Assembly (NCBI GenBank): GCA_965178125.1
Contig: OZ237746.1
Coordinates: 62,001 to 126,000, forward strand
Reading direction: 5' to 3'
Length of the DNA: 64,000 nt
Origin: Bilabrum cf. latius
Lineage: Eukaryota
The notes under the pieces were generated by a model that saw only the letters and a program-made list of their open reading frames with translations, made no database searches and had not been told where the DNA came from. The stretch's first letter is position 1; every line of letters starts with the position of its first letter. This document shows, in pieces, positions 1 to 59,923 of this stretch. A program made the translations under genes and the position numbers.

Positions 1-1510
1 CTTCCTCCTCCCCTGGCAGCCCCGTCCCCGCTAGCACTGCAGGCGCGAACTTGTCCCAGCCCCATGCGTGATACTTTGCCAGGTGTCGGATAGACCCGTC
101 CGTGCTGCAGGGGGCGTCCACCAGCACGCGGTCGTACTTCCCTTGGTGACACGACGAGGTGCATGCTGGCTCTACCGATGGGTGAGCCTGGGGGTGGGAG
201 GGCACCATGGCAGGGGCAGGGGCAGGGACAGGGACAGGGACAGGGGCAGGGGCAGGGGCAGGGGCAGATGATGAAATACTACGCCCCTGAGGCGCCGTGG
301 CGATCCCGAATGGCTCAGGTTGGCCGGCAGATGGCTTGCTAGACGAGTGCGGGTGCTCCGTGGCTGTCGATCCTCCCCCGGCATGGTTGCGTGCCAGCCC
401 CAGCCCCGCCTCCATGGCCCACGCGGGCTCCTGCAGCCAGGCCACAGGCACTCTGCCGCCCTTCTCCAGCGCACCCGGCCGCCGCCGGATCGCGGCCAGT
501 CGACTGCTGTCCATCGCGACTCTCGTGTGACGAGTGCCATCCACCGGAGGGGGTCTCTACTTGCCCTTTTCCTTCTTCTGTTTCTTTGACTCGCCAGCAT
601 GCTGCGCACCCCTGCCCCCAGCGCCCTACCCGGTTCCTCCGGATCCAACTCCGGCTCTGCTGCCGCGCGATGCTCCAGCCTCAATTCTGGCCGCAGCCCT
701 GGATCTCTTACCCCCAAGACGAGAATCTCTCCCCGATTCAGCCTTCATGCCTTCGTGCCCCTCCTCGTGCCCCTCCTCCTTCTCCTTCTCCTCGCGCCCG
801 TCTGGCCCCGCCCAGCGCGGATCCTCGTCAAAGAACCGCCCGTCTGCTTCCACTAGGCGCACTCTCCAGTGGCCTCGCGCAATTCCAGGCCCCGCGAGCC
901 CCGCTCGCCGAGCCAGCCCAGCCGCAATCTGCAGCCGATGCGCGCGGACGTCCACGCCAGTGAGCGAGCCGTGCCGACACATCAGGTCGCCAAGCAGAGC
1001 AAGTTTGCTGCCAGGGGCGCAGCAAAGGTCCAGCACGGAAGGGCCTCGTTCCATGTCCAGAGCTGCATCCGGCTCCCCCACTCCCAGCGCCAGGGCTGCT
1101 AAAATTGAGGATGCGTCGATGCCGTGAAGAGCGCCTGCAGCATACAAAGGAGACCGCTGCAGAGCAACGTCTCCAGGCAGTTGAAACACCCAATTTGCCC
1201 ATGCAACACTACTGGCTAACTGTGCTCCTGCAGTTTCCGGGCCATTCGAGCCCTCCGATGATGTGGACGGCAGCGAAGCACCAATAGAAGCAGGTGGTAG
1301 GGGGCCAATATCACCTGGCGCAGCTGAGTTGGGATGGAACGGACTCAGGCGAGAGTACCGAGCCAGCTCATTCGGTGGGATTTCGTAAATTTTTGTATTC
1401 ACGCCTTCCCGTCTTGCCCAGCTCAGGAACTCCGCCGGTAGGTGGTCACGCACTGCACCTCCACCACTGGTGTGCAGCTTTGATATACCGAATTTAAACG
1501 AATCAGACAT
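1..1510 (-). CDS. NOL1/NOP2/Sun (NSUN/RsmB-like) RNA m5C methyltransferase, 3' end runs out of the window
   Basis: SAM-binding motif VLDLCCAPGSKL. The same frame, read through TAG at 626-628 and 557-559, reaches KYDRVLVDAPCSTDGSIRHLAKY (motif IV) near 140-70. ATG at 1510. Confidence 0.85.
209..267. repeat. (GGGGCA/GGGACA)n hexamer microsatellite inside the methyltransferase CDS
   Basis: About 10 tandem hexamers are directly visible. They encode an Ala/Val-Pro run on the minus strand. Confidence 0.9.
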
Positions 1511-1680
1511 CAAACATCAATGGTTGAACTTCTTCATATCGGCACAGGTCGGCGCTGTGCTAAATCCGATGCCAGTAGGAAAGCCGGAAGCACCCTCATC
1601 ATCATGATCGTCGCTGGCGGTGCCAGAGTGCGCGAGGCAAAATGTAATTATAGGCATGAGCATGATACATGGCAGTAGTT

Positions 1681-8067: not shown

Positions 8068-9828
8068 TCACATCACGCCGCCAGCGCCCCCTCCCGAGAT
8101 GCCCATCCCCATGCCACCGCCCATGCCCATGGCGCCAGGCCCAGTGCGGGCCATCACAACCACCATGCCATCGGGCATGCGAGCACCGGGCAGCTGCGCA
8201 ATCAGCTGCCCAGCCACATGAGGGGGCGCGAGCATGGCCTGCTGCTCCTGCGCCTGTGTCATGGGCATGAGCACCGGCACCAGCGCACTCACGGCCTCCA
8301 TGGGCACAGGGCGCCCGCCCCGCCCTCTCCTGCCTCCCTTCTTCCCTCGGCCCTTGCCCTTTCCCTTGCCCTTGCCCTTCCCATTCGCCTGCACCGCCAC
8401 ATCATCCACGGTCTTGCTGTCCCAGGCGTGCAGCGCCCTCCTCCACGCCCTCAGTCGCCCGTCCCAGCGCCGCTTGCTCACCAGAGCACCCCGCTCGGGG
8501 GTCACGGGGTGGTCCACCCGCCGGCGGTTGCGCGCCTCCAGGGGCACCGCCCCCCGGTAGTTCCGGTATTCCTGCGTCTTCTTGCCCTTCTCGATCTGGT
8601 AGTCCCTCGAGGCCAGTGCCTGGGCGGAGAGCTCCGAGCACAGCGGGGTCAGCGGGGAGCCCAACGGACTCAGGGGCTCCTCGGAGCTCTGGGACCCGGC
8701 GCACTCGTCATCCGCGTCGGGGGCCACCACCCTCATGGCCATGGTGGAGCCTGCCAGGGGGGCGGTCGCGCTCGCATGGCCCGCCCCCTGCTCCTCCTGT
8801 TCCTCAGAGGCAGCCTGGGAAAAGGCGTGCAGCAGCGACCGGCGGGGCGTGGGTGTGGTGCACCTGGAGGCGCCCTCCACCTCCACCACCTCCTCGGTGT
8901 CTCCCGCGACATCCCCCGCGCGCACAGTCTCCGTCACCAGGTCGTGGCTGGCGGGCGTCAGCACCCTCCGCTTGGTAGCCCAGGCAGGGGTGCGCGGCCC
9001 CTCTGCGGTCGCGGAACCGGACTGCACCTACCTGTCTGCGCGGCGCCGGAACACCCGCTTGGTCGGTTTGCCGCTACCGCTGCTTCCAGTGGCAGGGGCA
9101 GAGAGGCCGGCTGCAGCCTACTCCTTGGGCTCCTCCTTGGGCTGCTCCTTGGGCTGCTCGACGCCCGCAAGGTCCACAGCAGCAGCGTCACTCGTCACAC
9201 ACCCCCGGTGCCTCCTGGCGGCCTCGGCAAAAGACCTGGCGGGGGCTACGTCCCGCTTGGGGGCCATGGCCTCGATCCCTCTCTTGCTCCTGCTCTCGCC
9301 CGCTCTCTTGCTCTTGCCCGCTAGTGCCGGCTGGGCCTCGGGGCGGCTGGCCTTGGCCCTGGATTTGGCCTTGGATTTGGCCTTGGACTGCTTGCCCTTG
9401 TCGCCCACCGATAGGGTCCGTGTCAGAGCGCCCTCGGCCTTGGTGGATGCATGCGGCGGCGTGCTCGTCACAGTACCAGCCGGAGATGCAGCCGGGGCGG
9501 CGCTGCTCCCCGTCGACGGGCTTGCGTGGCGGATGCACGCGGCACGGAATCCGCCCCATGCAGGCTTGGCCGCTGTCACTTGCGCCGAACTACTTTTAGA
9601 TTTAGATACTGAGGTCTTGTTGCTTGCAGGAACTCCCTTCTTGGCAGGTTTCTGATCGGACTGCGAAGCGGTTTGCAAGTCAGTTGTGTATCGGACAAGT
9701 GGTGGCAAAGCTTTGGTATCCATCGTTTTCATTGCCGCAGGGTGATTATGATAACACATAGAAACGGCAGCGGGCACGACTACCATAGCAGCTGCCAGCT
9801 GGGGAGCAATCCATAGCATCAAGATCAT
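8068..9828 (-). CDS. SLBP: Histone mRNA stem-loop binding protein (SLBP) domain protein with long low-complexity flanks
   Basis: QIEKGKKTQEYRNY...HPVTP...SKRRWDGRLRAWRRALHAWD resembles the SLBP RNA-binding domain. ORFs 9118-9828 and 8068-9027 join through two in-frame TAGs and stop at TGA. Start codon uncertain. Confidence 0.75.
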
Positions 9829-10271
9829 GATCGTCGGCGTTCAAAAAAATCCAAGGCAATGGCGGTGCATTTACAGTCACGGATCGGCCCATTGACGCGC
9901 CATGAAGCATTATTACTGTCTTACATATCCATCGATTCCCTCGGCCCCCAATCCAACATCTGCGTCGTTGCTCCAGTCGTACTCTTCCATGTGCAACCAA
10001 ATTTCAAACGATCAATTAAGAATCGAGGCACTCTTGTACCGATGTGTGAGTCCTAAGGCTAAGTCTCCGATACTTTATCAGATTAATGATACACACAGGC
10101 TGCTCTATATTAATTGAGACCCTCGAACGCGAACGGCTTGGATGGATTGCGGACAGGCCAAAAACGGCGTCGAATATCTACACGCAACTGATACACTCGT
10201 CACGCCGAGCAAGAAAAAATATACCAGATCCAGTGCCAGAACTTGTACATTGCATTCATCGTCAAGCCAAA

Positions 10272-13708: not shown

Positions 13709-14938
13709 TCAGGACTCTGGCACATGAAGGAAAAGAGGCCGCACGTCCTGTGCCTACATGGCTGTGCCAGTCACGGGACACGCGCCGTGTTTCTCGGCGT
13801 GCAGCTGCAGGCATTCTAGACACCCGGTCACGCCCGCTGGAGTGGCCCCCCCCGGCACCTTGGCCCGAGCCCATCCCCGCCCACACAGGGGACACGACCC
13901 CATAGAACCCCGGGGACCGGAGTCACGCAGCGCACCCCCTGCAGCGGACTGCACGCCCTGCATATGCACCGCCGGGGCTGGGCCCGGGAGCGGAGGCAGG
14001 GCTGGGGGGCCGGCTGCTGCTCCGTGCGCAGGGGCAGGAGGCAGGGCGGCTGAGCCGGGCACTCGGTGTGACGAGGGCCGCGCCACCCACCAGGCCCCCA
14101 CCCGGCGCACCGCTGACACGCATAGCACAAGCATCGCCACGGCCCACGGGCCAGCGGTCGCAAGCCGGAACAAGGCCGGGGAGGACCTCGCCGCTCTGGC
14201 ACCGGCACTCTGGGCAGCCACGCCCTCAGCTCGCTGGAGCCCGTGCCCAGTAAGAAGCAGACCCAGCAGTGGCCGTGGGGCAGTAGTTGCTGCGCCTGTG
14301 CGAGCTCGGCCCAGGCGCATGGAGCACAGCAACAGCGCCAAGGCCCGCGCGAGGCCGCGGCAGTGCAGTAGGAGCATGCACAGGTGCCCTGGGGAGGCTG
14401 CGATGCCAAGTCGCCGCAGTAGCGCAATGGCCTTTGCTACCAGTGTGCCACCGGAGAAACGCGCACTATTTTGGTCAGAACCGTCATGTTGTGCCCCCTG
14501 GGCTGCTTGCTATTGCTGTGTCTTGCCGCGCTATGCGAACCGAGCAGCCTTCCAACCAGCATAGGCCGCCAAAACCTCGATCGTTACCCAAAGAGGATAC
14601 AGCTGCGTGCTAGGAGCCGCAACTGCCTAACTTCCGCCGTTTGCTACGCGCTCCAGACCTAGAAACGCTTCTGGAACAGCAGCATTGAATAGAGCAGCCG
14701 ATCGGGCTTGGACCAAGAAGAATCCGGCAGCCGCGATTTCGTCCGAGTACTGCCTTAGCCAAGATGCGTCTGGAAATAGCAACTGCAGCACCTTCTCTGC
14801 CTAGTCTGGTAGCGAATCCACGAAGCGGTCTAAGGACGACAGGACCAAGACGTCTGTTAAGGACACCCCCGACGAGGGCCGCGTGCCTACTGCGCTGACC
14901 GACGTCGAGGCCGCTTGCTCCAGGGCTGCAAAACTCAT
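13709..14938 (-). CDS. PEX12: Peroxin PEX12-like protein (Pex2/Pex12 N-terminal region plus degenerate C-terminal RING)
   Basis: N-terminal LRQYSDEI...EAFLGLER and C-terminal CPLC...GVTGCLECLQLHAEKHGACPVTG...VRPLF. One frame from ATG 14938 to TGA 13709 with five TAG read-throughs. Confidence 0.6.
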
Positions 14939-15090
14939 GATTTATGTCATCATCGACACGATTGGTGGATCATGGGCGCTGATATTGGCCACACTGTGAG
15001 CAAAAGAGAATCGTGTTCGTCACTTTGTCGCTTGTGTGACGGACGCTAGCGCTAGAAGCTAGGGAGAGCGGTGGAAAATCAAACGCCACC

Positions 15091-18000
15091 TCACGAATCA
15101 TCGTCCCCTCCATCTGCGAGCAGCCTGCTCAGCAGGTCTGCCCCACCCCCCGCCATGCTCCCTCCGTCCCCCCCTCCGTCCTCCCTGTCCGCCGCCTCCA
15201 GCGCCGCCTCGCACGCCGTCAGAGCCTGCCCCACGTCCGCATCGCGCGCCCCCAAAGTGCCCTCCCTCACTGCGGCAATGCCCTCCCTTGCCCCCGCCGC
15301 CACGGCCGCCTTGGCCCTCGAGTGCCGCGCGCCCCCCGAGTGCGAGGACAGCAGGGACAGCAGCGCGACGCAGGCTGGCTGCACCACGCTCGGGTGTGAC
15401 GAGTGCTCGCGCAGAGCCGAGCTCACCAGCCCCAGCGCGCTCCACACCACCACCCCACCGGCACTCAATGGGCCCCCCCGCCCCGGCAAGCTCCCCTCAC
15501 CCGCGGCACTCAGACCCCCCCTGGGTTCCTCCCGCCAGGCCAGCAGCGTCCTCCGACGCGCCTCTGCCTCTGCCTCGGCGCTGCCCACGGGGGGGGGCTT
15601 CCCCCCGCGGGGGTCCCAACCTGCCCCACTCTTGGCAGCCCCCGCACTCGTCACACCGATGCCATCCCCCAGCCTGCCCCCCGGCACAGCCAGGGCCAGG
15701 AACCGCGCCGCGTGCTGCTGCACCCTCGCGTCTCTCGGAAACCTGCCCATGGCCCGGAGAACAAGCTCCCCCGCCCCCGCTTTGTCCACCCCCCGGGCCC
15801 TCTCTCTCGCCTCGACGGTCCCCGCCACCTCCCGCGCGCTCAGCAGTCGAGCCAGCGCGAACACGCAGTAGGACTGCGTGGCCGCCTCTCTCGGGTGCCT
15901 CTTGAGCCCCTCGCACAGCAGCAGGGCAGCACCTCCACGCTGCGCCACCGCGTCCCTCCTCTTGTCCTCCAGCCGAGCCACCTCCAGGGCCCGCGCCGCC
16001 CCAAGTGCAGCGGCCCCCCTGGCAGAATCACCCCCGAAGGTCAGGTTGCCCAGAGCCCGCGCGCAGTGCTCCGCGACAGTGGGAGACCCGATGTGCTGCT
16101 GCATGGCCGCCACCACCGCCCGCACCGCCCCCGCCTGGCACACCTGCCCCACCCTCCCCGCCAGGTCCCTGCCCCGAGTGCCCGAGCACAGGTTCGCAAG
16201 GGCCCCCGCGGCGGTCTCGCACACGCCTGCATCGGCCCTGTGCGAGTGCAGCGCCTGCACCAAGTGGGCCGGGATCCCCGCGGCGACCAGGGCCTGTCTC
16301 TGCGGCCCGCTGCGGGGAGAAGCCACGGAGCCGCCCGCCAGCCTGCCCACGCACTGGCAGCACCTCTGCTGGATCAACCCGATGGAAGCGTGCTTGGCCA
16401 TCAGGGCAGCCAGCCTGAAGGCCGCACCCGCCGCCAGCACAGCGTCGATCCGCTCCTCCGAGTCCAGAGCCACCCTGCTCAGCAGCAGCACCGCCCTCTC
16501 CGCCAGCCTCGGCTCCTCCATGGCCGGTCCTTTGGCCACTGCCGCGGCCAGGCCCACGCCACCAGCGGCAAACACCATCCTCCTGCGTTGTTCCCCGGCT
16601 GACAGCGTCACCCCAAAGCACACGAAGGCCATCACCCCGAGTGCGTTAGACACCACCTGCGGACTCCCCCGAAACCTCCACGCCGCGGCAGAGGCAGCTC
16701 GCAGCAGGGCGCAGTCCTTGGCCTCGCCCTTCCCCGCGTCCTGCCCAAGCCCCCCGGGCCCTGTTCCCCTCGGCCCCCGGGCAGCTCGCGCCATCAGCTG
16801 GGCCACGTCCATCCCCAGCAGACCCTAGCCCTTGCCCTTGCCACCGCCCTCCCCCGCAGAGGCCCCGCTGGCCTTGAGGGCGGCAGCCGCGCTGTCCGCC
16901 GCCTCGCTAGACACCTTGTCCGCCTCCTCCCTCGCCTCCACACTCGTCACATCCCTCCACCGCACCTTGAGCACCGCGTCGATCCGCCTGTCCAGCGAGC
17001 CCCCGCCCCCGCTCAGCACAGACATGAGCACCAGCAGGCCACGCTGCTGCACCGACTGGTCCTGCTGGTGCGCCGCCATGCACTGCAACACGGGGACGAT
17101 CGCACCCACCTCGCCCACGAACGCATCCCGTCGCATCTCCCCCGCCACCATGGCCTCTTTGGACACCCCAGAGTCGTAGCACAGCCCCTGAAGGGCCATC
17201 AAAGCCGCTTCCACCAGCCGGGGACGTGCGGGCCCCGCCCCTTGCGCACCGCCGATGCCCGTGTCGCGCAGGATGCTGACGCACATGCGGGCCGCCCCCG
17301 TGCCTGTGACGAGTGCGTCACACCGCGCGTCCCTCCCCGCGTCCCTCTTCCCCCTCGCCAAGTTCCCGATCGACACGCACCCCGCCAGCAGCACACCCAG
17401 GGAGCCGCTGAACCGCTGCATGGCACCCACGCAGCCCTGCACCGCCCCCTGGTCCACGATCATCACGCGGTGCCGGCTGGCCTCTTCCCCGTCGTCCCCT
17501 CCCGCCAGCCTTGCCAGGCAGTAGAGCGCCGCGTGCATGACCCCCTCGTGTGACGAGTGCTCCCCCATGGCCCCCGCCAGCACGTTGAAGCCCCCCTCCT
17601 TGAACACCTTGGCCCGCCTGCCTTCCTCCTGGGAGGGCCCCGCGGGCCCGAAGCACAGCGAGGACAGCAAGGCAAGCCCGTGCCGCTGCACGTGCGCGGC
17701 GCCCCGCATGTTCCGCATGGCCGTCACAGCCGCCGCGTGGGCCTCGCTCCTGAAGGCCCGCCCCACCATCGAGTCGGCCGCACCCCACGGGGCCCCCCTC
17801 ACGCCGGCAGTGGTCCCTGCCAGGGCGGCCACTGCGCCCTCCGCCACGGCCCTGTCTCTCGCATGCGCCCGCAGCCCCGCCACACACGCCTCCAGCGCCC
17901 CGCCCCATGCAGCCCGCTCCCTGCATGCGCGCAGCAGTGCCCTGAGAGCAACGGGCCCAGTGCTCGACCCTGCTGCGGTTCCAGCCTTCGACTCGGCACT

Positions 18001-21000
18001 GGGCGCTGCCCCGTCTCTCCCCTTCCCTCTCCCTCTGCCAGCTGCCTTGCCGCTGCCTCCCCCCTTGGCCCCTGCCCTCACCCCTCCCACCCCCACTGCC
18101 CTTACCCCTTCCACCCCCACTGCCCACTCCTCCGCCGCCCCCCGGGGCAGCAGTGTCCCAAGCAGCCCGCACCCCACGCTCACCACCCCCTGCTCCCGCT
18201 GGTGCCGAGCCACCAGCGCCGACACCCCCGACAGCAGCCTCCCCCCCCCGTACAAGAGGGCCTCCAGCCTCCACTACGCAGCGCCCAGCGACCGCTTGGC
18301 CCCCTGCAGGACCCCCGGTTCCAGCTCCTGACCCTTGCCCCCCTGTTCCTCCAGGACCGCCGCGGCCCTCGCGGGCGGCGGCCTGGCCAGCTGGAAGAGG
18401 CACTGCAGGGCCAGTCGGACGGCCCCGTGGATCTGCGACAGGAAAGCCGAGGGGTCCACCGCGCCCTCCGTGCCCCTGGGCCAGGCAGCGGATCCAGAGG
18501 AGGAGGAAGAAAGACCCGGAGCCGATAACCAGGGAACAGAGGGAGGGGTGCCCCCGGCTGCCTGCACGGCCGCCGCCACGATTGGATGGGCAAGGTCGTC
18601 CACCATGCCCTGCGGCACTTTGCCCAGGTCGTCTTTGCCCACTTCCTGGATCTTTGCGCATGCCCCGGCCCACACACCCCTCAGCTTGCTCAGCGCCAGG
18701 CTCCCCTCCCTGTTCCCTGCCCCGGGCCCCAGCGCGATGGACGCAGCCAGACAGGCTCGCAGCAGCCAGGCAGGCGCCCCTGCCTCCCTGCTGCATGCCT
18801 CCAGCGAGGCACCCGCCAGCCTCCGATCCGCAGCACTCGGGGCCCCATGACTCCCTCCTCCTCCCCCTTTGCCCACCCCCAGGTCGTGTTTCTCCACCTC
18901 CTGCTCGGCGTGTGTTGAGGCAGCCAGGCGCTGTGCCACAGCCAGCAGGACCGTCCTCAGCCTGGGGAACACGTCCCGTAGCCCTGGACCCGTGGGATAC
19001 GGCAGCTGCTTCTTCTCACTTCCTCCTGCTGCTGCTGCTGCTGCTGCTGGCTTCCCGCTTCCTTTGGCCCCAGCCCCGGACCCGGCCAGCACGGCCGCAT
19101 GGCTGGCAGTCCCGCTGGCCTGCTCATCCTGCGGATGCACCGGGACACCCAGGGCAGCCTCCAGGGCCAGCACGGCAGGGGCCAGGTGGTCCAGCACCAG
19201 GGCGCGAGTGCCCAGCGCACTCAGGTCCAGTGCACCACCATGCGATGCACTGGCCTCCTCCAGCCTGCTCTTGTGTTCCTCCGTCTCCTTCTGTGCTTGT
19301 TCCCTGGCCGCCCGCACGCGCGCAGCAGAGGCCTGCTCCTCCCTCTCCCTCACCGCCTCGAGCTCCCTCTCCCTCTCCGCGGCACTCTGGGCCTTCTCCT
19401 CGTCCTCCAGGATACCCTTGGTGCCCTCCCAGGCCAGCCCAGCCATCCGGTCCAGCGACTCGGCCGCCTCCTCGAGGCCCGTCCGCTGCTCGGGGTCGCA
19501 CCGCAGCAGCCCGTGCATCAGTCGCCACACTCCCGCCGGCACATGGGCCACCTGGGCCCCCACGCCCTCGCCCTGCCCCGCAGCCCCTGTCGCTCCCCCC
19601 GCATCGGCCCCCTTGAAGAAACACCCCCTCGCCGGGCTGGGCGCCCTGATCTTGGAGTCATCGTAGGCGTAGATGCACTCGGGCAGCAGCCCACTCCTGG
19701 ACACGCCCCTCGCTGCCCGCCTGCAGGACTGGGGATACCCGGGCAAAAAGGCCCGCCCGCACGCCAGCGTGTACATGAACTGGCCGAGCTCAAAGGCGCC
19801 CTGCTTCCTGTAGGGAACAAGCAGCCGGATCCCCGTGCGGGAAGCATCCCTCCGCCCCGCCATGGCAGTCAGCACCTCGGGGGCGAGCAACTCGGGGGGA
19901 GGTGCCCCGATGTACTGCCCCGCGGGGCCGTTGTTCACCACCCCAATGGCTGTGTCCCTGCCGGCCTCCGCGCTTCCCTTGCCCCCCCGACGCTTGGACC
20001 CCGAGGTGGGGTCCGACACCTGAGAGCCCCCACCGGCCACCCCCGCCCCCGACTGCACCTCTGGCTCTCTGGAAGGGTCCAGCGCCAGCGCCCACTGCCA
20101 GCCCCCCTCCGCCTGCCCCTCCTCCATAGCACCACCACCCCCTGCACCCGCCCCCCCCGAGCTCGTGGACCGGCCACTGCTCGGTCGGGGACTGGGGCTC
20201 AAAGAGGGCAACCCGGTCGTACCCATCGATGAAGTGCCTCTTGCATTCCCTCTGCTGCCCGGTTTCGGTTTACTCGCCCGCATGCCGGCCCCCACAGCCG
20301 TCTTGATACGCCTCAGCTTCCTCGACGATCCACCGGCGCTGCTGCCTTTGCCCTTGCTCTTGCCCTGGCCATTGCCAGCTTTTGATCTTCCTTTGGCCGC
20401 TCCTTTGCGTCTTGGCCCCGCGCTTCCCACTCCCATGCCCCCAGGCCCTTGCCCCTGACCTGGCACCGCTGTCTTGCTCCTCCTCAGCTGCCCTGTCCCG
20501 GCCACTCCAGCTGACATGCCAATGCCCACACGCGCAGATCCAGGACCAGCACTTGCACTACTGGCTGCCCCCGCCCTTGATCGGTCCAGCTCACCTTCAT
20601 CCCCACTATCGTCACCGTCTTGCTCATCCTCCCCGTCACCGTCTCCGACGGCTCTACCCACCCGCCTCGCAAACGCCAGGTCTGTCACAAAGGCCCGTGG
20701 CAGCCCAGCGGCCTCCACCAGCTGAGCAGGAGAGGAAGAGGCGCTTTCCCCCGAGCCTGATGATTGGCCTGCACCACCATGCAATGCAGCACCAGGGGTC
20801 CACAGCCGCATCAACAGATCCGATTCGCTGCCCTGTGCACCGCCATGCAATGCACCGCCATGCCCTCTGTACACAGCGCAAGACCCAGCCCCTGTGCCAG
20901 CCCCAGCCCCAGACCCAGGTGCAAGCAGCACCGCCGCCTGCGACAGGCACCGGTGCACCCACCCATGCGCCCGCAGATCCGCAAGCCCCCGCGCCACGTC

Positions 21001-27138: not shown

Positions 27139-30100
27139 TCATGTCCCGTGCTCCACCCACAAAACAGCTGCGCCAAGCCCCCGAAGCGCCTCCAAGACTC
27201 GCCCTCGGCTGGCCCCATCAAGTGCACTCCACGCCTCGTCCGCCAGCAGCAGCCGGGGCGGGGGGCTCCTCAGCAGCAGCCTCGCCACCGCCACCCGCTG
27301 CAGCTCGCCCGCCGACAGCTGAGAGTGCCAGTCCCCACTGCGGCCCAGCTGACGAGCCAGCGATTCCAGCCCCACCGCCTCCAGCACGCGCTCCATCTCG
27401 GCGACATCCACGGGCTAGAGCGACGCACTCGTCACACCAATTGGAACACCAGGCCCCGCTCCCCCCTCCTCCACGCTAGATGTCCACTGCCAGCACGCCT
27501 CGCAGCACGACTCGCACTCGTCACACGAGCAACCCATGCACCCAGCCGCACCCTCCCCAGTTGCCTCATCAGGCTCCTCCCAACTGACAGCGCCACAACC
27601 AGCACCAGCACCAGCACCAGCACCAACCCCCGCTAGCAGACTCGAGGGTGCCCTCCTGCCGGTGCCCATGGCTAGCGCCAGAGCCAGCGGGACACCCTCG
27701 GGGATGTAGGGGAGGGGGCCCAGCCAGGCCACCGGGCCCGGGCTGCACTGCACTGCGGTGGAGAGCGCACCCTCGCGGGCTGGCACCCGGATGCTTCCAC
27801 TGGCAGCTCGCCGCAGCCCTGCAATGCAGTGCAACAGCGTGGTTTTCCCCGCCCCGTTCCTGCCGCTGACCCTCCACCATTCCCCTCGACAGGCCTGCAG
27901 GGACACGGGGCCCGGCGGCAGCGGTCGAGCAAGCCGCTGGTGGTTACGCTGCAGTCTTGCCACGCCTGGTATTGCTTGTACCGCAGGGACATTGCTCTGC
28001 ATGGCATGTCCTGCAACCACCGCCTGCATCTCGAGCTCGATGGGACCAGTTCCGGCGTCAATTGCGGCCTGCCCTCCGATTGCATCTCCACAGTGCACTG
28101 CATCTGGAGCTGCCAGAGACACCTGCACATCTGCCCCCAGCTGCTCATCCTATCCTCCCCCCTACCGCCGCCCCCCCTCCCCACCGCACTCGTCACACCC
28201 CTCGCACCGCCTCACCAGCTGCAGCACCCTCGCCCCCACCCCCATGAGCTCGGCGGCAGAGGCCAGGTAGTCCGGGAGGGCGCACATGTACAGGTTCAAA
28301 GAGATGAGCAAAGAGGACAGCGCGTACAGCGAGGCAAGCGACATCCTCCCCGTCCCCTCCTCGTCGCGCCCCTGTTCCCCTCCCGCCGCCCCCTGCGCCG
28401 CAGCAGCCGCAGCCACTGCCGTGAACGCATACGCGATCCCCGTGCCACCCCTCGCTGCCACCAGCGCCGCCAGCCTGGCGGGCGTCTCGAGCAGCACCAG
28501 GGAGTGCGCCGCCGCCAGCAACGAGGCCATCCTCGCGTCAGCGGTATCTCTCTCCCACTGTTCCCCGCCCAGACCAGCCACCGCGTCCGCCCTGTCCCTG
28601 GCCCTCGCGTGCCCCCGCCGCAGCACGCCCTCCCGCCTGCGCACCTCCCACACCGCCTGGGGAACAGGCTGCAAGAGGCACCGCGCCAGGGCCAGGGCGG
28701 CCAGCGCGAATAGCACACATAGCAGCACGGCCAGCCCACTGAGCCGACTGGCCGCCACCGCCGCGGACAGCAGCCCCGTGCACACCTGCACCAGCGACAC
28801 CCGCCCCCTGGCCCCCCACAGCGCCACCCCAAGGAGGTGCCCAGCCCTGTCCGTGTCCTGGGCCGCGCGCTGGTCCAGCCCGTCGCTCTCGCCCCCGGCA
28901 CCTGCCCCTGTGCCTGTACCTTCACTTGTTACACCTGAGTGCAGTGCACCCGGCGCCCTTGTTCCCTGGCCCTCCGCCCCCTCTGTCGCACCTGCGCCAC
29001 TTCCGTCCTGGCCCTGGGTGCCGCGCGCCAGGACTGGAAGCAAATGGGACCCAGGCGCCGCGATCGTGCGATGCACCCGGGCGGTCACCCTGCGGAACCA
29101 CCTCGCGCTCACCGCGGCTCCCAGCGATTGCGACCCGGCGTTCAGCGCCGCTGCCAGCGCATACGTCCCTGTCCCCACCCAGAAGGCCGCCCAGAAATCG
29201 TGGAACCTCAGCTCCACGATTGCCTGCAGCGCATCCCCCACCACGAAGGCCTTGGTCACGGACACGAGAGCGAGGAGAACCTCCAGCACGAAGGTGAGGG
29301 CCAGGAGGAGCCAGTCCAGGGACACCCGCCCGATGGGCAAGCCAAGTGTGATGAGTGCACCGCAGTCCCAGACGCCAGCCGCGGCTGCCTCGAAGCAGCC
29401 CCTGCACACACAGCCGCCTGCATGACCCGCCCGCTTGCTCCCATCGTGTGACGATTGCCCGGATGCGGGCCTGCGCTGAGTCTCGCCAGACGACCCCAGC
29501 AGGGGCAAACGGTCCGAGACTGGGGGTGCCACGTGTGCATTGGGAGCAGCGCTAGCGGCTGCCAGCCCCCCAGTGCCAGCGGATAGAGAAGGGACCCTCG
29601 CTGGCGAGCACGTCTCGATGGCTGGTGCACACTAGCCCAAGCCCTTCCTCGTAGCCCCATCCTAGTGCTCTCCATGGCTAGACGCGCTGCCAGTGCTACT
29701 CGCAGCAGTTGCATCAGTCCCCATCGCGCCCAGCTGCAACGCCTTCACCTGCCCCTGCTCCCATCCGGCCTCGACCAGCGCCTGCCTCGTCCTATCTTCC
29801 TGATGGGTCACCAGCACCACGGTACAGCCCACCTCTCTCAAAGCACGCGCACATGCCCTCAGCCCCTCGTCGTCCTGTGCCCCCAGCGCCTCGTCCGCCA
29901 GCAGCAGCCGGGGCGGGGGCCTCCTCAGCAGCAGCCTCGCCACCGCCACCCGCTGCAGCTCGCCCGCCGACAGCTGAGAGTGCCAGTCCACTGGAGCTCG
30001 TCTGTAGTCCTTGTTCCCCAGCAGCCTCTCTTGGATGCTTAGTGATAGATCCAGGGCTTGCAATGCCCGGGTCACCGCATCACGTTGTGCACCCGCATAT

Positions 30101-32533
30101 CCAGCCGTGTCTGGTCCATTGAGCTGACCCGATCTACCACCACCATAGCTTGCAGGCAGCCTATCAGCCGAGGCCCCAGCAGTCACGCCAACCCCTGTCC
30201 CTTGGGTATCGCCGCACCTGTCTCCATCTCCCTCCTCCGGTGCAATCACCATCGCACGGGCCATGGAGAGATAGTTCCCTGCGATCCCATCCCCTCTCAG
30301 CGACCTGCACGCAGACCAGCAGCACCCCGCTAGCCCGCCCCCAGAGGAGCCCCCACCTCCTCTCTCACCTCCTCTGCGCTCTTCGTGTACCAAGGGGTCA
30401 CGCAGGCGTCCACCCCCCTGCCCTTCGGCAGGCCCTGTGCCCCCACACCCCTACCCAGGGGCACACGGCATGGGCATCCTGCAGCAGCAGCACGGATACG
30501 GCTCCACCGCGGGGAGGAGAGCCTCGGCCGTGGCTGCAGCGGTCGATGGGAGGCCGGGCAAGGAGCCGGCCATTGCTTGCCACTGCCCCTGCGGCTCTGC
30601 CCTCGCACGGACGATTGCCGGGTCCACGGGTGCAGGGTACTGCAACGCCTGCTCTCCCGTGGAGGGGGGCACGTAGGGAGTCCCCTGCAGCAGCAACACG
30701 CTCCTGCCGAGCGATCTTCGCCTGGCGTCCTCACTCGTCACACCTGATACTCCCCGAGATCTCCCCTCGAAGACGGTACCCCCGATGGTACCCTCACAAG
30801 CCCCGGCCTTGTTCCCCGCGATTGCTCGCAGCAGGCTGGTCTTGCCACACCCCGAGGGACCAGTCACCAGCAACACCTCACCCTACCCCAGCTCAACGGA
30901 CACATTCTGACACAGAAGCTTCCCGCCTGCCTTGACGCTGACACCGGTCATACTCAGGGCAGCGGCAGCCTTCCTGCCTCCCAGCGGGCCCCCCGCCCCC
31001 AATTGATCCCCTGCATCCTCGGCCCCCCTCTCCTCCCCCAGGAGCCCCGCACGCTCACCTTCACCTTGACCTTCACCGACACCTGAGTCCAACCCCCCCC
31101 CTAGATCACTCCCATGGCCCGCACTCGTCACATCCAACACGGCCCTCACCCTCACGGCCGCGCCCAGCGTCGGACCCAGCCCCAGCAAGAGCCCAGGCAG
31201 GGCGCACAGTGCCCCGATCAGGTAGGCGGCGCCGGCGGCGGCAGAGGCCACGTCAGCGGCACTGGCTGTACACGGAGCATCGTCTGCACCGCCATGCAGT
31301 GCCTGTGACCGCACCAGTCCCCTCAAGGCTCCGGCACAAGCAAGCCCCCCCTACTCGCCCCCCATCGACCCCACCCCCATCCCCCCGCTCCCCTCCCCCG
31401 AGCATGAGACGAACATGCCCCCGTGCTGCACCCCCAGCGCGATGCACGCATAGCACAGCACCCACGGATAGGACGCCTGCAACCCGCTCCACGTGCCGCT
31501 CGCCACCATCCAAGAGGCCAGCTCCATGCGGCGGGCAGCCACCCGGCCCGCGAGCCCCTCGAGCCGTGAGCCCAGGGAGGGCCCCAGCCCAGCCAGCACC
31601 ACCTCCTCCGCCTGACGAGTGGCCCTGTCCCACGCAAACCGGAACTGTCCCATGGCCCGGTCGGCGGCCGCGGAGAGGGAGGCCACGGGGGAGAGCAGCA
31701 GCCAGGCCACCGAGGCGCTGGCCGTTGCGAATGCAAGGGCGATGCCCACCGTGCGCGCCCCACCCACCCCTTGTGCCACGTACTGCAGGCTTATCCCCGC
31801 TGAGACGAGCGTGGACACGATCCCACCCTGGGACGTGTTGGAGGAAAAGAGGCGCTGGGCGAGCAACCGGCAGAAATCGTCCAGGTCCGATGTGGCGCGC
31901 TGGTCGAAGTCAGGGGCTGTTGCGGGTACTTTAGAGTCCATGCTATCGATCGTCGTTTTTGATTGTGCTCTGGCAAAGCCTGCCTGGTCATATATGCCGC
32001 GGTGGAGCTTTATCGCCAATGCACCCCGCATGCGCCAGCGAAGGCGCTCCCCCTGCAGTTGGCAAAGAGATGATTGGCTTACAACAAACTAACTAAAACG
32101 AAACAAGCGAGTAGATTGAGCGCTGTGTATGCATATTAGTGTCCATTGTCCTCACTGTCGTCGCCGCACCTTGCAGCAACACTGCAACGCAGCAATACAG
32201 CAACAGAGCGGCAATCACGTCGCCCCTGGCCCCTTCCCAGTCCTCATCATACAGTTTTCCGACAATGGCCGCCGATACAATGGTCGTGTGGAAAGATGCT
32301 AACGATCTGCAATGTAAGGGTACGGCACAACATGTCTTGGAGTGCCTCAAGGCCACATGCCAACAGAGAAGCTGTCCTCGCGGGACTCACGATAAGACCT
32401 AGCTGGCCAAGTTCACAAAAAGGTCGACATAAGATGCTCCTGGTTCGAGACAAAACGACGCAACCAGCAAATTCCAAGCCGCTGGCAGTGCGAAGCGTGG
32501 AGAAACGGTAGCTGTCCTCTTCTCATACTCCAT
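27139..32533 (-). CDS. Full-size (TMD-NBD-TMD-NBD) ABCD-type peroxisomal-like transporter, divergent
   Basis: Two NBDs with Walker A GPSGCGKTS and GRNGAGKTT, signature LSAGELQR, Walker B LLLADEA and H-loops. DQRATSD/DQRAAQD motifs in the TMDs. Two 5' introns; the remainder is one frame via TAG read-through, ending at TGA 27139. Confidence 0.8.
27232..29989. repeat. Pair of 103-bp near-identical direct repeats (27232-27334 and 29887-29989) in the two NBDs
   Basis: Direct comparison shows one mismatch. The repeat encodes DWHSQLSAGELQRVAVARLLLRxPPPRLLLADEA. Confidence 0.9.
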
Positions 32534-38735: not shown

Positions 38736-41700
38736 ATGTCAAGTGCAAGCGGGGCAAGTTCCCCATCTTCTGATGTCCCTTGGGACGCTAGCATGGTGGC
38801 TTTGGTAAGCAACCGGTGCTGGCCCGACACTTTCGCCGTGCGACCTGTGCTGCCCATCCGTTTATCGCAATTTCCTCGGCGGACCCCTCCACTGCGCAGT
38901 GTGCCGCAATCGGGGTTAAACGATCCCATTTAGAACGCTAGCGAGAGCAAGTTCGATCCATTGCGTGCTTCCAGGTGCCCGCGCTCCGCTGCCATTCGGT
39001 CGACTACTTTCGCCAAGTTGAGGATGTGGAGTGCGTGCAGTGCAGGCACATGAGATCAATTCATCTTCCCTCGCTTGTCGTTCTGCGAATTTTAAATCTG
39101 AACGAATGCGGTCTCGAATCTATGGCCGGCGTAGCTGCCCTCCCTTCGCTGGAGCGGCTGTACCTGGACGGCAACAAGATTCGTCGGGTAGAGGGGCTGG
39201 CCAGGCTGCGCCGTCTGCGGACGCTCTGGCTGAACGACAACCGGATCGAGAGCTTGGCTGGAATCCATGGCACCGCCGCAAGCGAGAGCCTCGAGACGCT
39301 GTGGGTGGCCCGCAACCGCGTGCACTCGCTGGGTTGCTCGCTCGAGGGCTGCTCCCGTCTGCAGGAGCTAAACCTGGCCGACAACTCCATTGGGCACTTC
39401 GGAGAACTGGCTACCCTCGCCCGGCTGCCCTCTCTGAGGAGCCTTGCGCTGGAGGACCCCCACTTCGGGGGCAACCCCCTGTGCGCGCTCTGCAACTACA
39501 CCCCCCTTGCCCTCCACCAGCTGAGGGGGGTCCAGGCCCTTGATTCCATACGGCTCAGCGAGGAGCAGAAGGCGGGCGCAGAGGCGACTTTCTTGAAGAA
39601 GCGCATGTACTACAACATGAGGATCCGCACCATCCACAGGAACACTTCCAACGTTCTCAGGCGGGCGGCATCGGCTCTGGGGGCCCGCATCGGGGAGATT
39701 CGCACGGGGGCGAGGCAGCTGCTCATGGGATGGAGGGACCTGCTTGCGGGCATGTCGGCGGCGAGGGGCCTGCTGGAGGCAGGGGACGAGGGGCTGGCCA
39801 AAGAGGCAAAGAGGCAGGAACCCAGGCTGAGGAGCATGCTCCGATCGATCGAGGACTGCGTGAGGCATCGGCTCGCGGCGGAGGTCAGGCTCCGGTCCGG
39901 GCTGGATTCCCTGCGATCCACGCTGCGGAGCGTGTCTCAGCTGCATGTGAGGAGGTTGGTGCTGGAGCTGGAGACCGGAGGCAACATCCGACTGGAGGAC
40001 GGGAGGCGGGGGGAGCTGTGGCACGACTCTTGCGTTGACCTGGTGCGGTCGAGGTTCCACTCGAAGGACTTCCAGGCCGTCGGGATCAAGGGGGTGCGGG
40101 TCAGGAGGGTGACCCGCATCCACAACAGGTACCTGCGGGCCAGGTTCGAGAGGAGGAAGGCCGCCATCATCGGGGCCGATCCGGAGCTGGCGCAGGAACT
40201 GGGGGCTGCGGGGACACAGGGCGGGGCGGGGGCGTCTGCGGCAGGGACCAGGAAGGGTGGGGGAGTGGGAGGTAAGGAGGGGCAGGGCAGGGCCGCCGCG
40301 GATGCGGCGCGGCGCCGCGCGCTGGAGTACCTGTTCTACGTTCCGCAGTGGTCCAGGGAACAAGCGGACCGGGAGCCCTGGCGCGCCGTGGAGGAAATCC
40401 AGCGGATCGCCGAGCACGGGTTCAGCGTCCCACAGCACGCGCAGGCGGCAGCGCCAGTCCCGCCGCCCTACTCTGCCCCCGCCACGAGGCTCCCGCCGCC
40501 TACGTTCGCCCACCCCCGGAAGCGGTTCGGGAAGGCAGCTCAGCAGCCCACGCCCGCCCAGCGCCTTGCGGCCGAGACCACGGGTCCGTGGGAGTACCCG
40601 GCCGCGCCCGGCGTGCTGTTCTCCAACTCGCTGTCTGCCCTGGAGCTGCCTCGAGTGGCGGAGGCAACGGCCCGCACACTGGAGCAGCACCGGGGCCCAC
40701 TGCTGGAGGGGCTGGGCTCCGAGGTGAAGCAGTGGAGGAGACAGGGGGACAGGGGCAGAATCGGATCATCGTCGTCCCCATCATCACCACCACCGTCCTC
40801 TTCGTTCCAGGCGTCTTCCGGGCATGCGGCAGCTGCATTTGGCGTGCCTGCAAGCGTGGCTCAGGTGGCTGCGGCTGCCTTGCGAGACCTCCAGCAGCAG
40901 CAGCAGCAGCGGCATGGAAATGAACCGGGGGAAGATTCAAAGGAATCGGAGCTGAAACCCAGGCCTGCCGCGTCCGGTGCCGGCAGTCTCGACGGCAGCT
41001 CCTCTGCCCCTGCCCCTGCATTTCCCGATGCCAGCGATGCAGCCACCGGGCTAGACGGGCTTGCCGCCCTGCACGCCTCTGCCTCGGACAGAGTGGCCTC
41101 CTGCCTGGAAGGAGCCATTGCCACTGGGAGCGCCGGGAGGGAGCGAGCGGGCTGGAGCGCCACCGGCATGCTGCAGGCCACCGGCATCGAGAGCTCCGGG
41201 GGGCCCCTGTCCATGGGTGGCGCGGGGATGGCTTCGTTCACGAGGCTGGCTGTGAGAGAGAAAGTGGCGAATGAGACGGCCGCTGCCGCTGCGGCGAGTG
41301 GGCAGGGGAACGGGTCCAGGCACGGTGCCTCTGGGAGTATGTCTCTTGACTCGTCTGCCGGCGCTCTGCTGGGCGAGACGGGGCCTCGCCTCACGAGGGC
41401 GGGCTGCTCCGAGGGTGTGCTGCTGATCTCCAAGGTGTTTCTGGGGCATTGCATGGGGGCTGAGGAGGCCTGGGAGCTGCACCACGGGGACGAGGACGAG
41501 GGGGACGAGGACGATGATGCCGATCAGGAGGACTCGCAGTAGCAGCAGCAGGGGGCGTTTGGAGGCAGGAGTCCGGTCTCCTCCGGAGCAGCGAGCCCAT
41601 ATTACAGGAGCTCACCGGCTGCCTCCAGAGCAAGCACGCCCGCTGGCCCCAGCCCAAAGGAGAGAAAGAGGCAGCAGCGCAGGCGACCGGTGCACAGCGT

Positions 41701-44700
41701 GGTGTCGGCACGTGGAGACGATCCCAAGCAGCGGCAGTGGTGCGTGCTGGATCCCAACACGGTACTGCCAGAGTACATCGTTGAGTTCGAATACTTGTAC
41801 GAGCCGTCTGCCGAGGCTATTCGGGCGGGGATCGCCAGTGGGACAGCGATGGGCGCGGGTGCGTCGGTTGCCTCGCAGGGAGCTGGCAGGACCAGTCCCC
41901 ACGATGCGGGGGGGCTGTCAGTGGTGGGCCGCACCAGCGCCGCCTCCCAGGCATCTGCCAGCGCCAGGCACTCGCCCACGGGCAGTGCGGGGGGCAGTCT
42001 CGGGGGTAGGAGCAGCCGGACTGGAGGCGGCGCGGGAGAGGGGGAGGACGGAGACGGCCAATACATCGCTCCTGTGGGGAGCGGGGGCTCCAGCGTGGTG
42101 GCTGAGCTGGAGGCACTGGCCTAGATCGCGCTGGGTGGGATTGGAGGAGGTGGTGGAAGTGGGGGGGCTATAGGGGGGGGCGAGGAGGAGGGCGGGGATG
42201 GTCGAGGGGGGCCGCCCGCCGTGCACCTGGCACCCCAGGAGGAAGCGGATCTGCGGCCTCTGGCCCGTCCTCTGGCCCGTTTCGTGAGAGATTGCTTGGG
42301 ACTGGGGGCGTACTTCGCAGGGCCCGGGGAACAAGAGGCGTAGGACGCGGTGGCTAGAGTGGCGGACGATCTGCCCACCCGACCCACCCCGAGGGAGTGC
42401 CTGGCGCTGGCCGTGCAGGTGGCAGGCGACGGTGGTGGTGTGACGAGCGCGATTGGCGGCGGCGGTCCCGACGGGCTGCAGATGGTGTCGTCCCCCGCGG
42501 GTCCCGCCGCCAGCCTGCACTCGTCATCCCACGCAGCCCTGCTGTCCCTGCCGGAGCCCTCATCCGGCCCCCAGGCCAGCCGGGCCCTCCGTGGACTCGC
42601 CGCCCTGTCCCTGGCATTCTGTTCCCTGCAGTCGCTGGACACCATCGCGCCTCTGCTGTCGATGCTCGAGAGCATCCGGTTGCTTGACCTCACGGGCAAC
42701 GCGATCTGCGAGCTGACGAGTGGGGAGCATGAGCAGGAGGATAGCCAGGACGGCACTGGGGCAGGTGCGGCATCATCCTCCTCCTCCTCCTCTCCCGACA
42801 CCTGTCCCCTGGCCGCAGTGGGAGACACGCTGGAGGTGCTGCTGCTCACTGACAACCGCATCGCTGGGCTGGAGGACCTGCCTGCCTTGCACAGGGCAGT
42901 GCCTGGGCTCCGGTCGCTGTGCCTGCGGTACAACCCGGTGGCGCAGGCGCAGGTGACAGAGGAGACCGCGGCAGCGGGGTCAACAGAGCCCGACACTGCC
43001 GTTGGATTCGACACGGGCGGCGGTGGTGGTGCTTCCAGCAGTGGCAGCGGCCTGGATGCAAGCGAGATCGGCGAGCCGGGCATTCAGGCCGTGCTGTCGC
43101 TGATGCACGCAGGGAGGGCGGGGGCGGCGGTGCCCGACGAAATGCGGCTCCTCGCACCCAATCCCGCCGAGGGGCCCACAGGTGGGGGTCTCCCGCGAGG
43201 CAGTGCGGTGCACCTTGTGCCTGGCAGCGGCGCGGTGGGCGGCAGGTACCGCCGGGAGGTGCTCCGCGCTGTTCCCTCGCTGACCCACATCGACGGGGTG
43301 TTGTTGCTGCCCAGGGAGAGACAGGCGGCGGTGGGGGCGCCCACGAGCGTGTCCAGGGCACTGGCGGCCTCCAGGGCGGTCGATGCGGTGGGGAGGCCAG
43401 CCTACGAGACCAATGCGAGGGGAGGGGAGGGTGCGGTGGAAGATGGGGAGAGGGAGGGGGAGGTGACGGAGATGGGGGCCGTCACTGGCGCACCGTCCTA
43501 GGCCCGAGGTCCTTCTGGTTTAGCCACCATGGTGCAGGTGGGCAAACCCGACACCCTGGATCTCAGCCGGCTGGGCCTGCGCACGCTCCTCGGGGACGGC
43601 TTGCGATCCGTGGGCGGTCTCCGCGTGCTGGACGTGTCTTGGAACGAGCTGACCGGGCTGGAGGGTGTGGGTCACATGAGCCAGCTGGAGGAGCTGAGGG
43701 CCGAGGGGAACAGCCTGTCCAACGGGAGCCCAGAAGGGGCAGCTCCAGCGGGTGATGGGACCACGGGCGCCGCTTCTTCAAGCACCAGCACCAGCACCAG
43801 CCTGGTCTCCCTGCGTCCCCTGGCCCCTTCACTGCTCCGGCTAGACCTGGGCCGCAACCGACTCTCTTCTTTCGAGGGGCTGCAGGGACTAACCCGGCTG
43901 CAGCAGCTGAGTCTCGAGGACAACGGGATCACTCGGCTGGACGGGCTGAGCCGGCTGCAGCACCTCATGGAGTTGTACCTGGGGAACAACAAGGTGCGAC
44001 CGCTCAAGGAGGTGCTCCGTCTCAGGGAATTGCCGCGGGTCATCATCCTGGACCTCAGCGGCAACCCGCTGGCGCTGCAGGGCAAATACAGGCTGTTCAC
44101 GGTGTACCACATGAGGAGGCTCAAGGTGCTAGACGGGGCCTCCATCTCCAGCAGGGAACAGCAGGAGGCCAGGGAACAGTACAGTGGGAAGCTGACCCTC
44201 GATTTCCTGGAGGACAGGCTGCAGGGCCGCAGATTCGACTCCATCCGGGAGCTCGACCTGAGCGCGGGCCGGATCAAGGACATGGAGCTGCTGCCGGGGA
44301 ACAAGTTCTGCAACCTCGAGGTGGTGGACCTCAGGAACAACAGCCTCACGGGACACGGGGTCAAGGGCCTCCGGGCCCTCCCCAAGCTGAGGGTGCTGCG
44401 CCTGGGCTCCAACAAGGTGCACTCGGTGGTGGCCGCGGTGACGGCGCCGGCGCCGAGGAGTGATGCAGCGGCGGGAAATGGCGAGGGGGCTGGGGCTGGG
44501 GCAGCGACGGGGACTGGCAAGCCCTACTCGCCGTTTCCTTCCCTCAGGGAGCTGGATCTGTCCCAGAACGCGGTCGCGGACGTGGGTGCTGTGGGGCTGC
44601 AGCACCTGCCGGGTGTGACGAGCGTGGATCTCAGCGGCAACGACATCACCAAGCTGCAAGGGGGGCTCAGGGGCTGCGGGCACCTGCGGTCTCTGTCGCT

Positions 44701-45595
44701 GAGCAAGAACAGGATCCGGGTCGTCGAGCTGTCCGACATGCAGGCGCTGACGGGGCTGACGTCGCTGCGGCTGGCGGAGAACGGGATCAAGCAGCTCGGC
44801 GGGCTGACCTGCCTGCAGCCGCTGCAGCTGCTGGACCTCTCGGGCAACCGGGTGCACGACATGTTCGAGATAGAGAAGCTGGCCGCACTGCCCTTCCTCG
44901 CCGATCTGAGGATGCAGGGCAACCCGGTGTGCAGGCGGCAGCTGTACAGGCTGGGCGTGCTCCGTCACCTAGACCTCCTCGCCAGGCTGGACGGGCAGCC
45001 TGCCACTGACGAGGAGAAGCAGAGGGCCGCCGCCATGTTCGACGGGGGCGGGGGCGGGGGCGGGGGCGTTGTCGAGGACGGGGGGGGCAGGAGGACCCCA
45101 GGAGGGGGAGTGACGTACTACGGTGGACCAGGGGGTGGTGCTGTGACGAGTGCGAGGTCTGGTTCCCCCGGGATGGGGGTGCTGGGGGTGGCGGGGTCCT
45201 CGGCCGGGGGGGGCCCGGGTTCCAGGGGTCGTGTGACGGCCGTGACCCTGGGCGCGCTGTCGGTGATGGGGTCGGGGCGTGGGGGGCGGGGGATGGTGGG
45301 GAGGGGGGGAACAGGTCTGGTCGCGGGTCTGGTGCCCAGTCGGGGCGGTGGATCAGGTGTGCTGGGCGGGGGGTTCGGAGTGGGGGGGGGTGAGGCGGGG
45401 GTGCTGGCCGCGAGGGGCTCCCGCAGGCGCGGGGGCGCTGGGAGCGGTGCCTCCGGGCGGTCCGTGAGCGGAGGACTGGTGGGAGGGGCTGCCCCGGGGA
45501 CCAGGGGGTCTGCAAGTGGAGCACACGGCCACGGGTCACGGAGGTCTCCGCGGGCAGTACGCTACGGCAGCTCGTCAGCTTCGTTCCGCGGCTGA
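38736..45595 (+). CDS. LRRC9: Leucine-rich repeat protein, LRRC9-like (cilia-associated)
   Basis: Several SDS22-like LRR blocks with LRRcap motifs (GNPLC, GNPVCRRQLYR...LDG). LRRC9-type segments KKRMYYNMRI, ELETGGNIRLEDG and WHDSCVDLVRSRF. Intron 38805-38899, TAG read-throughs, TGA stop. Confidence 0.8.
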
Positions 45596-59915: not shown

Positions 59916-59923
59916 TGGCCCAG

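Follow-up and report, generated by a model that had tools for sequence, protein, structure and literature searches.

A polar 12-nucleotide word overprinted on the genes of a protist that reads TAG as glutamine: a candidate site for recombination- or repair-coupled drive

Why would one short DNA word recur in unrelated genes, on both strands and in different reading frames? The question is raised by a 64,000-nucleotide stretch (C12:62001-126000, hereafter the window) of a eukaryotic genome of 48.57 Mb in 111 contigs, about 2% of which was read here with gene models based on open reading frames (ORFs). The first-pass annotation of the window had listed 13 copies of an 11-nucleotide word within five genes and had proposed a DNA-level signal overprinted on coding sequence. 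This proposal is supported by a sharp consensus, an orientation-linked flank and conservation in a distant relative. We suggest, with a probability of about 0.4, that the word is the polar site of a putative conserved DNA-binding factor, and that alleles bearing it are favoured during recombination or repair.

The exact 11-mer was found at all 13 positions, on the strands reported, and nowhere else in the window; 100 dinucleotide shuffles of the window held 0.01 copies on average, and none of them reached 13. The five unrelated host genes and the five different readings (TRH, VTS, HSSH, LVT and CDE) were both borne out. The unit does extend further, but as the 12-mer CACTCGTCACAC, whose position 12 is occupied by C at 91-97% of coding sites; a G before the word occurs in only 39-57% of them. 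Near copies had also been reported: those at 14066, 42438 and 44613 carry one mismatch, and the one at 9464 carries two. The remark that the retrotransposon lacks the word holds in so far as 45,200-64,000 contains no copy, yet the element itself is only about 4 kb long. The long FG-GAP, histidine kinase and Tudor genes adjoining in the same window have no copy either. The host genes and copies are as follows.

2..1516, minus strand: RsmB/NSUN-type methyltransferase gene, extending past the window edge; 1 copy
526..536, minus strand: exact copy in the methyltransferase gene, frame TRH
8068..9828, minus strand: histone stem-loop binding protein (SLBP) gene, PF15247; 1 copy
9189..9199, plus strand: exact copy in the SLBP gene, frame VTS
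14067..14077, minus strand: one-mismatch copy
15091..21801, minus strand: gene for a 2,236-aa ARM-repeat protein; 5 copies, all within the last 830 codons
15395..15405, minus strand: exact copy in the ARM-repeat gene, frame HSSH; peptide retained in the 93%-identical homolog P0122
15645..15655, plus strand: exact copy in the ARM-repeat gene, frame VTS; peptide retained in P0122
16941..16951, plus strand: exact copy in the ARM-repeat gene, frame VTS; VTG, gapless, in the 77%-identical homolog P0121
17305..17315, minus strand: exact copy in the ARM-repeat gene, frame LVT; peptide retained in P0121
17549..17559, minus strand: exact copy in the ARM-repeat gene, frame HSSH; outside homolog coverage
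27139..32031, minus strand: ABC transporter gene, PF00005 and PF06472; 5 copies
27426..27436, plus strand: exact copy in the ABC transporter gene, frame VTS
27515..27525, plus strand: exact copy in the ABC transporter gene, frame CDE
28187..28197, plus strand: exact copy in the ABC transporter gene, frame CDE
30732..30742, plus strand: exact copy in the ABC transporter gene, frame VTS
31122..31132, plus strand: exact copy in the ABC transporter gene, frame VTS
39050..45595, plus strand: gene for a 2,181-aa leucine-rich-repeat (LRR) protein; 1 exact and 2 near copies
42439..42449, minus strand: one-mismatch copy in the LRR gene
44614..44624, minus strand: one-mismatch copy in the LRR gene
45142..45152, minus strand: exact copy in the LRR gene, frame VTS

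The word is neither a library adaptor or primer nor a product of codon usage, the two ways out that the first-pass annotation had left. An adaptor or assembly artefact is ruled out by 3,180 exact copies genome-wide (1,586 on one strand and 1,594 on the other, at a mean spacing of about 15 kb, with 8 copies of the reversed word as a control) and by coverage in independent runs: contigs from runs X5 (9001-9660) and X6 (9001-10785), which belong to studies other than that of the best-holding run, cover site 9189 without any differing letter. Across 115 stretches predicted to be coding (251 kb, comprising the window and tiles chosen by position, one of them picked near known sites), 50 copies were seen against 0.875 in synonymous shuffles (maximum 4 in 200), an excess of about 57-fold. 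Two further candidates were rejected. None of the 24 TRF rows is built on the word, and a tiny intron is discarded because the ORFs run continuously through the sites; of 45 joints, 15 were listed, and none of these falls at a site.

The proteins carry the imprint of the word. The tripeptide VTS occurs 65 times where 23.9 are expected (2.7-fold), and the word accounts for 40 of the 65 (1.3 expected); the other four word-encoded tripeptides stand at 1.0-1.6-fold their expectation. Among 299 coding sites, the frames are VTS (180), HSSH (47), TRH (32), CDE (28) and LVT (12), proportions that are skewed by the flank patterns with which the loci were fetched. The sixth frame holds TGA, and no site lies in it. 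The sense strand reads GTGTGACGAGTG at 208 of these sites and the opposite at 91, with both senses found within single genes. The consensus is sharp, with 232 exact 12-mers against 119 single-mismatch forms spread over 36 possible variants. In homologs of the ARM-repeat gene, the alignment is gapless at all four covered sites and the peptide is retained at three. The 31 word-rich ORFs share no common function (13 have Pfam matches, including kinesin, actin-like, DHHC, PIG-P and prenyltransferase); within them, low-complexity inserts hold most of the copies. Taken together, this points to a word that changes protein sequences as a DNA-level signal and not as a peptide.

Where do the copies accumulate? 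Positions were analysed for 187 sites, fetched by four flank-extended patterns, on the 42 large contigs (0.54-2.85 Mb); for one flank pattern, 20 of 117 matches (C38 onward) were left out. A fifth pattern (77 sites) was dropped because 20 of 30 loci that it fetched are one repeat family; its inclusion gives a rho of -0.57. The longer the chromosome, the lower the word density (rho -0.63, p 8e-6; with C14 omitted, -0.68) and the fewer the copies per chromosome (rho -0.49). The sampled density per Mb is about 12 on C1, 14.5 on C2-6, 40-56 on C7-29, 183 on C30-42 and 279 on C14, a gap of about 12-fold between small and large chromosomes. Complete lists agree with this gradient (35 copies on the 2.85 Mb of C1, 37 on C2), as do tiles chosen blind to site position, which hold no copy over 94.5 kb from C1-6, 19 copies over 109.5 kb from C30-42 and 25 over 111 kb from C14. 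C14 is the densest chromosome for its size, and C32, C37 and other small chromosomes equal its density. Of 98 clusters, 54 lie 50-300 kb from an end where 41.5 would be expected (p 0.007), and the last 50 kb are depleted (7 vs 23 expected). No word specific to the large chromosomes stood out when one was searched for.

On a finer scale, 126 of 130 central sites lie in long reading frames, and the last 300 nt of ORFs are avoided. Copies form homotypic clusters of up to 13 in 3 kb; many stand in tandem at intervals of 15-27 nt, and 22 of 189 neighbour distances are below 30 nt. Gaps of 200-300 kb separate copies on C1 and C2. Repeats shared across chromosomes hold 1 of 55 copies, and 48.5 kb of AT-rich inserts hold none. 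Such AT-rich stretches (30-38% GC; L036, L086, L135, L152, L487 and L493) occur on several chromosomes, lack the word and are presumably endogenous virophage-like inserts; L086 contains an integrase-like ORF. The members of one dispersed repeat family, about 450-700 nt long and 75-99% similar to each other (L051, L056, L066, L076 and 16 more), each carry one word copy, and 11 of the 20 lie on C14. That chromosome has a low coding share, many repeats and genes with up to the maximal cluster size given above; the 3 kb at its start (L083) have a bacterial appearance. On C12, an interior cluster (650000-820000; 942000-1030000) lies 120-290 kb before the ribosomal DNA (rDNA) array, and no sampled site lies beyond the array.

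The word also leaves a polar footprint in the sequence beside it. Once gene and amino-acid means are subtracted, fourfold-degenerate sites show G+C raised by 5.4 points at 15-50 nt and by 2.8 at 50-100 nt from the word and back at baseline beyond, a rise present in 81 of 110 genes (p 1e-8). An excess of C on the 3' side accompanies the word whichever way the gene runs (+6.4 and +5.3) and follows the orientation of the word instead of that of the gene. It is retained at 128 isolated sites (+6.3), stands at +0.9 ± 0.9 for 25 shuffled control words (maximum 3.1), and decays smoothly over about 100 nt from the 3' end of the word; the flank shows no second motif and no clear periodicity. Protection of CpG was considered as a cause and rejected: the effect is larger outside CpG (+7.6 vs +4.1), so it is not a methylation-protection footprint.

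The host is a eukaryote, with telomeric CCCTAA at contig starts (by position 1 at four of six chromosome starts sampled), spliced introns and an 18S rRNA. The long genes of the window stay open only if TAG encodes glutamine. Two TAG sites of a proteasome subunit fall at glutamine in 92 and 119 of 120 aligned homologs, that of a thiolase falls in a variable column, and TGA terminates all 10 complete genes checked. The best named homologs are distant, at only 59-63% identity for the thiolase and about 43-54% for the proteasome subunit. The short 18S on C12 looks to us like that of a stramenopile, perhaps a bicosoecid; no bicosoecid with TAG as glutamine was among the papers listed by literature searches. 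A second, differing 18S on C95 (L081; 1,411 of 1,691 aligned bases identical to that on C12) probably comes from a co-assembled organism.

Is the word confined to this genome? A scan of JGI metagenomes for tandem words returned at least 121 stretches, and 119 loci were examined. Most appear satellite-like or due to chance, and 6 of 78 loci above 1 kb passed the flag for TAG as glutamine. Nine of the contigs returned, eight from Ga0136560 and one from Ga0307982, represent relatives without any DNA match to the sampled part of the host genome; six of them are open only under the same code, which the metagenome relatives share with the host, and hold additional scattered copies, again in the host's frames. 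Between relative and host, an SMC-like ortholog shows 28-31% identity; this very divergent protein (L474; L317) is conserved in both. The raw C content of the relative is 0.358 on the 3' and 0.316 on the 5' side of the word (n = 28, p 0.003, the sites not being independent).

The word is not alone. The companions CAGGGAACAA, CGGTTGCAACCG, GATCCGATCC, ATTCCGAGTC and GGCGCCGCGCA exceed synonymous shuffles and are scarce on C1-6, and at least five companion words correlate per gene; in the relative, all except ATTCCGAGTC exceed their reversed controls. Companion words with copies in the window, likewise enriched genome-wide over synonymous shuffles, are CAGGGAACA, with 12 copies in the window (2303, 18530, 18711, 19298, 24461, 28960, 40354, 42620, 44152, 44170, 50390 and 50840), and the palindrome GGTTGCAACC, with one (26845). 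Two candidate companions were set aside: GCATCGCATGG is weak and partly a repeat, and GCGGAACC does not stand out from its reversed form (37 vs 27). Mimicry of the word by viruses was also rejected, as 119 of 120 IMG/VR loci among the matches listed hold one copy and the other holds two.

What could maintain such a word? A putative conserved, orientation-sensitive reader is the core common to the two leading readings, and we consider it probable. In the recombination- or repair-coupled drive favoured here, a conserved sequence-specific factor of the protist clade with TAG as glutamine would recognise CACTCGTCACAC as a polar site. Copies would arise through point substitution where the protein tolerates it, and would be over-transmitted, or preferentially kept, in recombination-associated heteroduplex formation or repair (molecular drive). 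Since over-transmitted copies would pile up where exchange should be most frequent, they would be expected on small chromosomes and some distance inside the ends, and the repair or conversion tract would leave a one-sided gradient of base composition over about 100 nt. For the drive to act in favour of the word, the word-bearing chromatid would, as we conjecture, have to be the donor or be shielded from cutting. This reading is preferred because the protein footprint resembles that of uptake sequences and the chromosomal pattern that of the extra break sites of yeast. As far as the available parts of the sources go, tripeptides encoded by bacterial uptake sequences are likewise doubled (PMC2817400), and in yeast, breaks are more numerous on short chromosomes and some 100 kb away from telomeres (PMC6393486). 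It is also preferred because a conversion or repair tract may leave a short decaying gradient, and a second Spo11-family gene, intact, and Mnd1 are present in the genome. The lack of a shared function among the host genes, the synonymous and VTS excesses, the sharp consensus and the gapless substitution at one of the four homolog-covered sites speak for it as well. More tentatively, the word may be a eukaryotic counterpart of uptake sequences: in a reversal of the hotspot paradox, a conserved factor would lend alleles with the word an advantage in meiotic transmission, and a few such words would have overwritten the proteome of an entire clade with TAG as glutamine and recorded its recombination landscape.

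Several points weigh against drive. Motifs that promote breaks are usually lost, not gained. Neutral drive should also fill non-coding DNA, yet the word is nearly confined to gene interiors: in word-rich loci its density is 554/Mb in long frames and 95/Mb outside (262 vs 8 copies, p 1e-10), and the first 750 nt of ORFs are avoided (11% of 147 vs 27% of 482). The size effect has an exponent of -2.0 ± 0.3, steeper than expected from one crossover per chromosome, and the chromosome with the highest density, C14 (about 280/Mb), is of middle size and rich in repeats. On the CACTCGTCACAC strand, the 3' flank shifts by +6.0 for C, -3.0 for A, -3.7 for T and +0.7 for G, with +0.9 on the 5' side; this strand-specific flank is unlike GC-biased conversion, which is strand-symmetric. 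Further, synonymous GC does not follow chromosome length in position-blind genes (rho -0.09, p 0.37, n = 106), and the synonymous-GC halo of the relative is not significant in 8 ORFs (p 0.16-0.65).

The first-pass annotation had left open protein binding, recombination, replication and chromatin positioning; the data favour recombination or chromatin without settling between them. The main alternative, somewhat less probable than drive, is a selected chromatin signal in gene bodies. Clusters of the word and its companions would recruit a putative factor, and this factor would either maintain the activity of weakly expressed genes or impose a state on the scale of chromosomes, in chromatin that is rich in repeats and viruses or close to the ends. 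It would account for the near-confinement to gene interiors, for the homotypic clusters and for companion words that correlate per gene and recur in the relative. AT-rich tiles are about twice as common on the small chromosomes and C14 as elsewhere (13-14% vs 6-8%), foreign DNA is more plentiful where chromosomes are rich in the word, the dispersed repeat family carries the word, and five full-length C5-methyltransferase domains together with the large tandem zinc-finger family described below constitute machinery of a silencing type. However, the word-rich ORFs form no functional class, sites turn over between homologs, the three wordless neighbours in the window are passed over, the flank is no methylation-protection footprint, and a twofold difference in repeats is small against a twelvefold one in density.

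An origin of replication or a fork barrier comparable to the autonomously replicating sequence (ARS) consensus of yeast seems improbable. The length of 11-12 nt, the polarity, the one-strand flank of about 100 nt and the mean spacing would suit such an element, but the long gaps on C1 and C2, with 35 copies on all of C1 vs 13 in 3 kb elsewhere, the coding instead of intergenic location and a flank rich in C instead of A/T do not. Relics of mobile elements, or an inserted 12-nt cassette amplified locally by slippage and read by nothing, would preserve the frame and yield the tandem copies and the repeat family that holds the word; this is nevertheless very unlikely, given unrelated flanks at the other sites, gapless alignment of homologous proteins at every covered site, decayed copies rarer than exact ones and persistence of the same word at 28-31% protein identity. 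No more credible is an element acting in the mRNA. The word is confined to transcribed frames and prefers the GTGTGACGAGTG sense, but nearly a third of the coding sites have the other sense, single genes contain both, and the flank tracks the strand of the word in either gene orientation.

How does the word compare with known systems? Like the uptake sequences of Neisseria (DUS) and Pasteurellaceae (USS), according to the available part of the source (PMC2817400), it occurs in thousands of exact short copies on both strands and in coding DNA, with raised tripeptides, in poorly conserved stretches and not in recently acquired DNA. The roughly twofold rise in tripeptides that marks uptake sequences is matched here by VTS. 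The defining trait of those systems is a naturally competent bacterium with sequence-biased uptake, whereas the host here is a eukaryote; the roughly twelvefold gradient with chromosome size, the preference for coding over neighbouring non-coding DNA and the use of several words also set it apart. With PRDM9 motifs it shares a non-palindromic 12-nt form, a local rise in G+C and a host with minisatellite-like zinc-finger arrays variable at contact positions. PRDM9 motifs erode and turn over fast, in contrast to a word that is abundant, sharp, common to a distant relative and more often exact than decayed; its strand-specific flank (C, but hardly G) also differs from symmetric conversion. Chi sites (RecBCD/AddAB) are likewise over-represented and located within genes; they are polar in their effect, and the polarity found here is that of a compositional footprint. 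The word shows no strand bias along contigs, belongs to a eukaryote and is in far sharper excess.

Other comparisons come from chromatin and replication. The Caenorhabditis elegans MEX and pairing-centre motifs are 12 nt long, clustered and biased in density between chromosomes, and PATCs mark host genes in silent domains; unlike them, the word is found on nearly all chromosomes as a gradient, towards both ends and inside codons. The yeast ARS consensus also has a one-sided flank, but ARS elements are even, intergenic and A/T-rich in flank where the word is twelvefold uneven, coding and C-rich. Clustering within genes recalls REF6 of Arabidopsis, in which zinc fingers read CTCTGYTY and act on chromatin at genes; only about 15% of these sites are bound, and the available part of the source reports no proteome distortion or size gradient (PMC6497721). 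The persistent meiotic-break regions of yeast, as described in the part of the source available, lie near ends, on short chromosomes and beside the rDNA (PMC6393486). The word is also raised near, not at, ends and on short chromosomes, although the yeast region is a chromatin domain and not a sequence word. Uptake sequences, PRDM9 motifs and ARS elements are thus each defined by some trait that the word does not show.

Short words that rewrite proteins are known from competent bacteria; here a eukaryote bears the same footprint, alongside a gradient with chromosome size and a polar shadow of mutation or repair. No eukaryotic precedent was found in a literature search that excluded subscription papers and supplements, and the word itself returned only unrelated papers among the matches listed. 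If drive is at work, a motif would gain from recombination, and the hotspot paradox could be tested from the other side. A chromatin code under selection would stand out for its explicitness and for being written into codons. Under both readings, the exact 12-mer could serve at once as bait in a search for its reader. Strain cultures or RNA appear to exist in public runs, none of which is recorded as RNA.

Among the side observations, a large tandem C2H2 gene family (L495, L496, L497; clusters on C3, C4, C5, C9, C13 and C20; 1,067 zinc-finger candidates counted) encodes 14-17 near-identical fingers of 29 residues that differ mainly at contact positions. Their N-terminus carries VIDL and an acidic stretch, which we take to be similar to a SUMO-interaction motif; in the three arrays read, out of many, the ORFs contain no SET or KRAB domain. 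The retroelement of the window (59927-63572, minus strand) consists of a reverse transcriptase ORF followed by a tyrosine recombinase-like ORF, with TAG as glutamine, and is presumably DIRS/Ngaro-like. A sister lineage in run X9, diverged by about 9% in DNA (range 7-11%), covers 9001-29000 of the window. Finally, the window encodes a multi-exon microbial rhodopsin (PF01036; 23915-26700, minus strand) with a long C-terminal extension, which is found spliced in runs X5 and X7.

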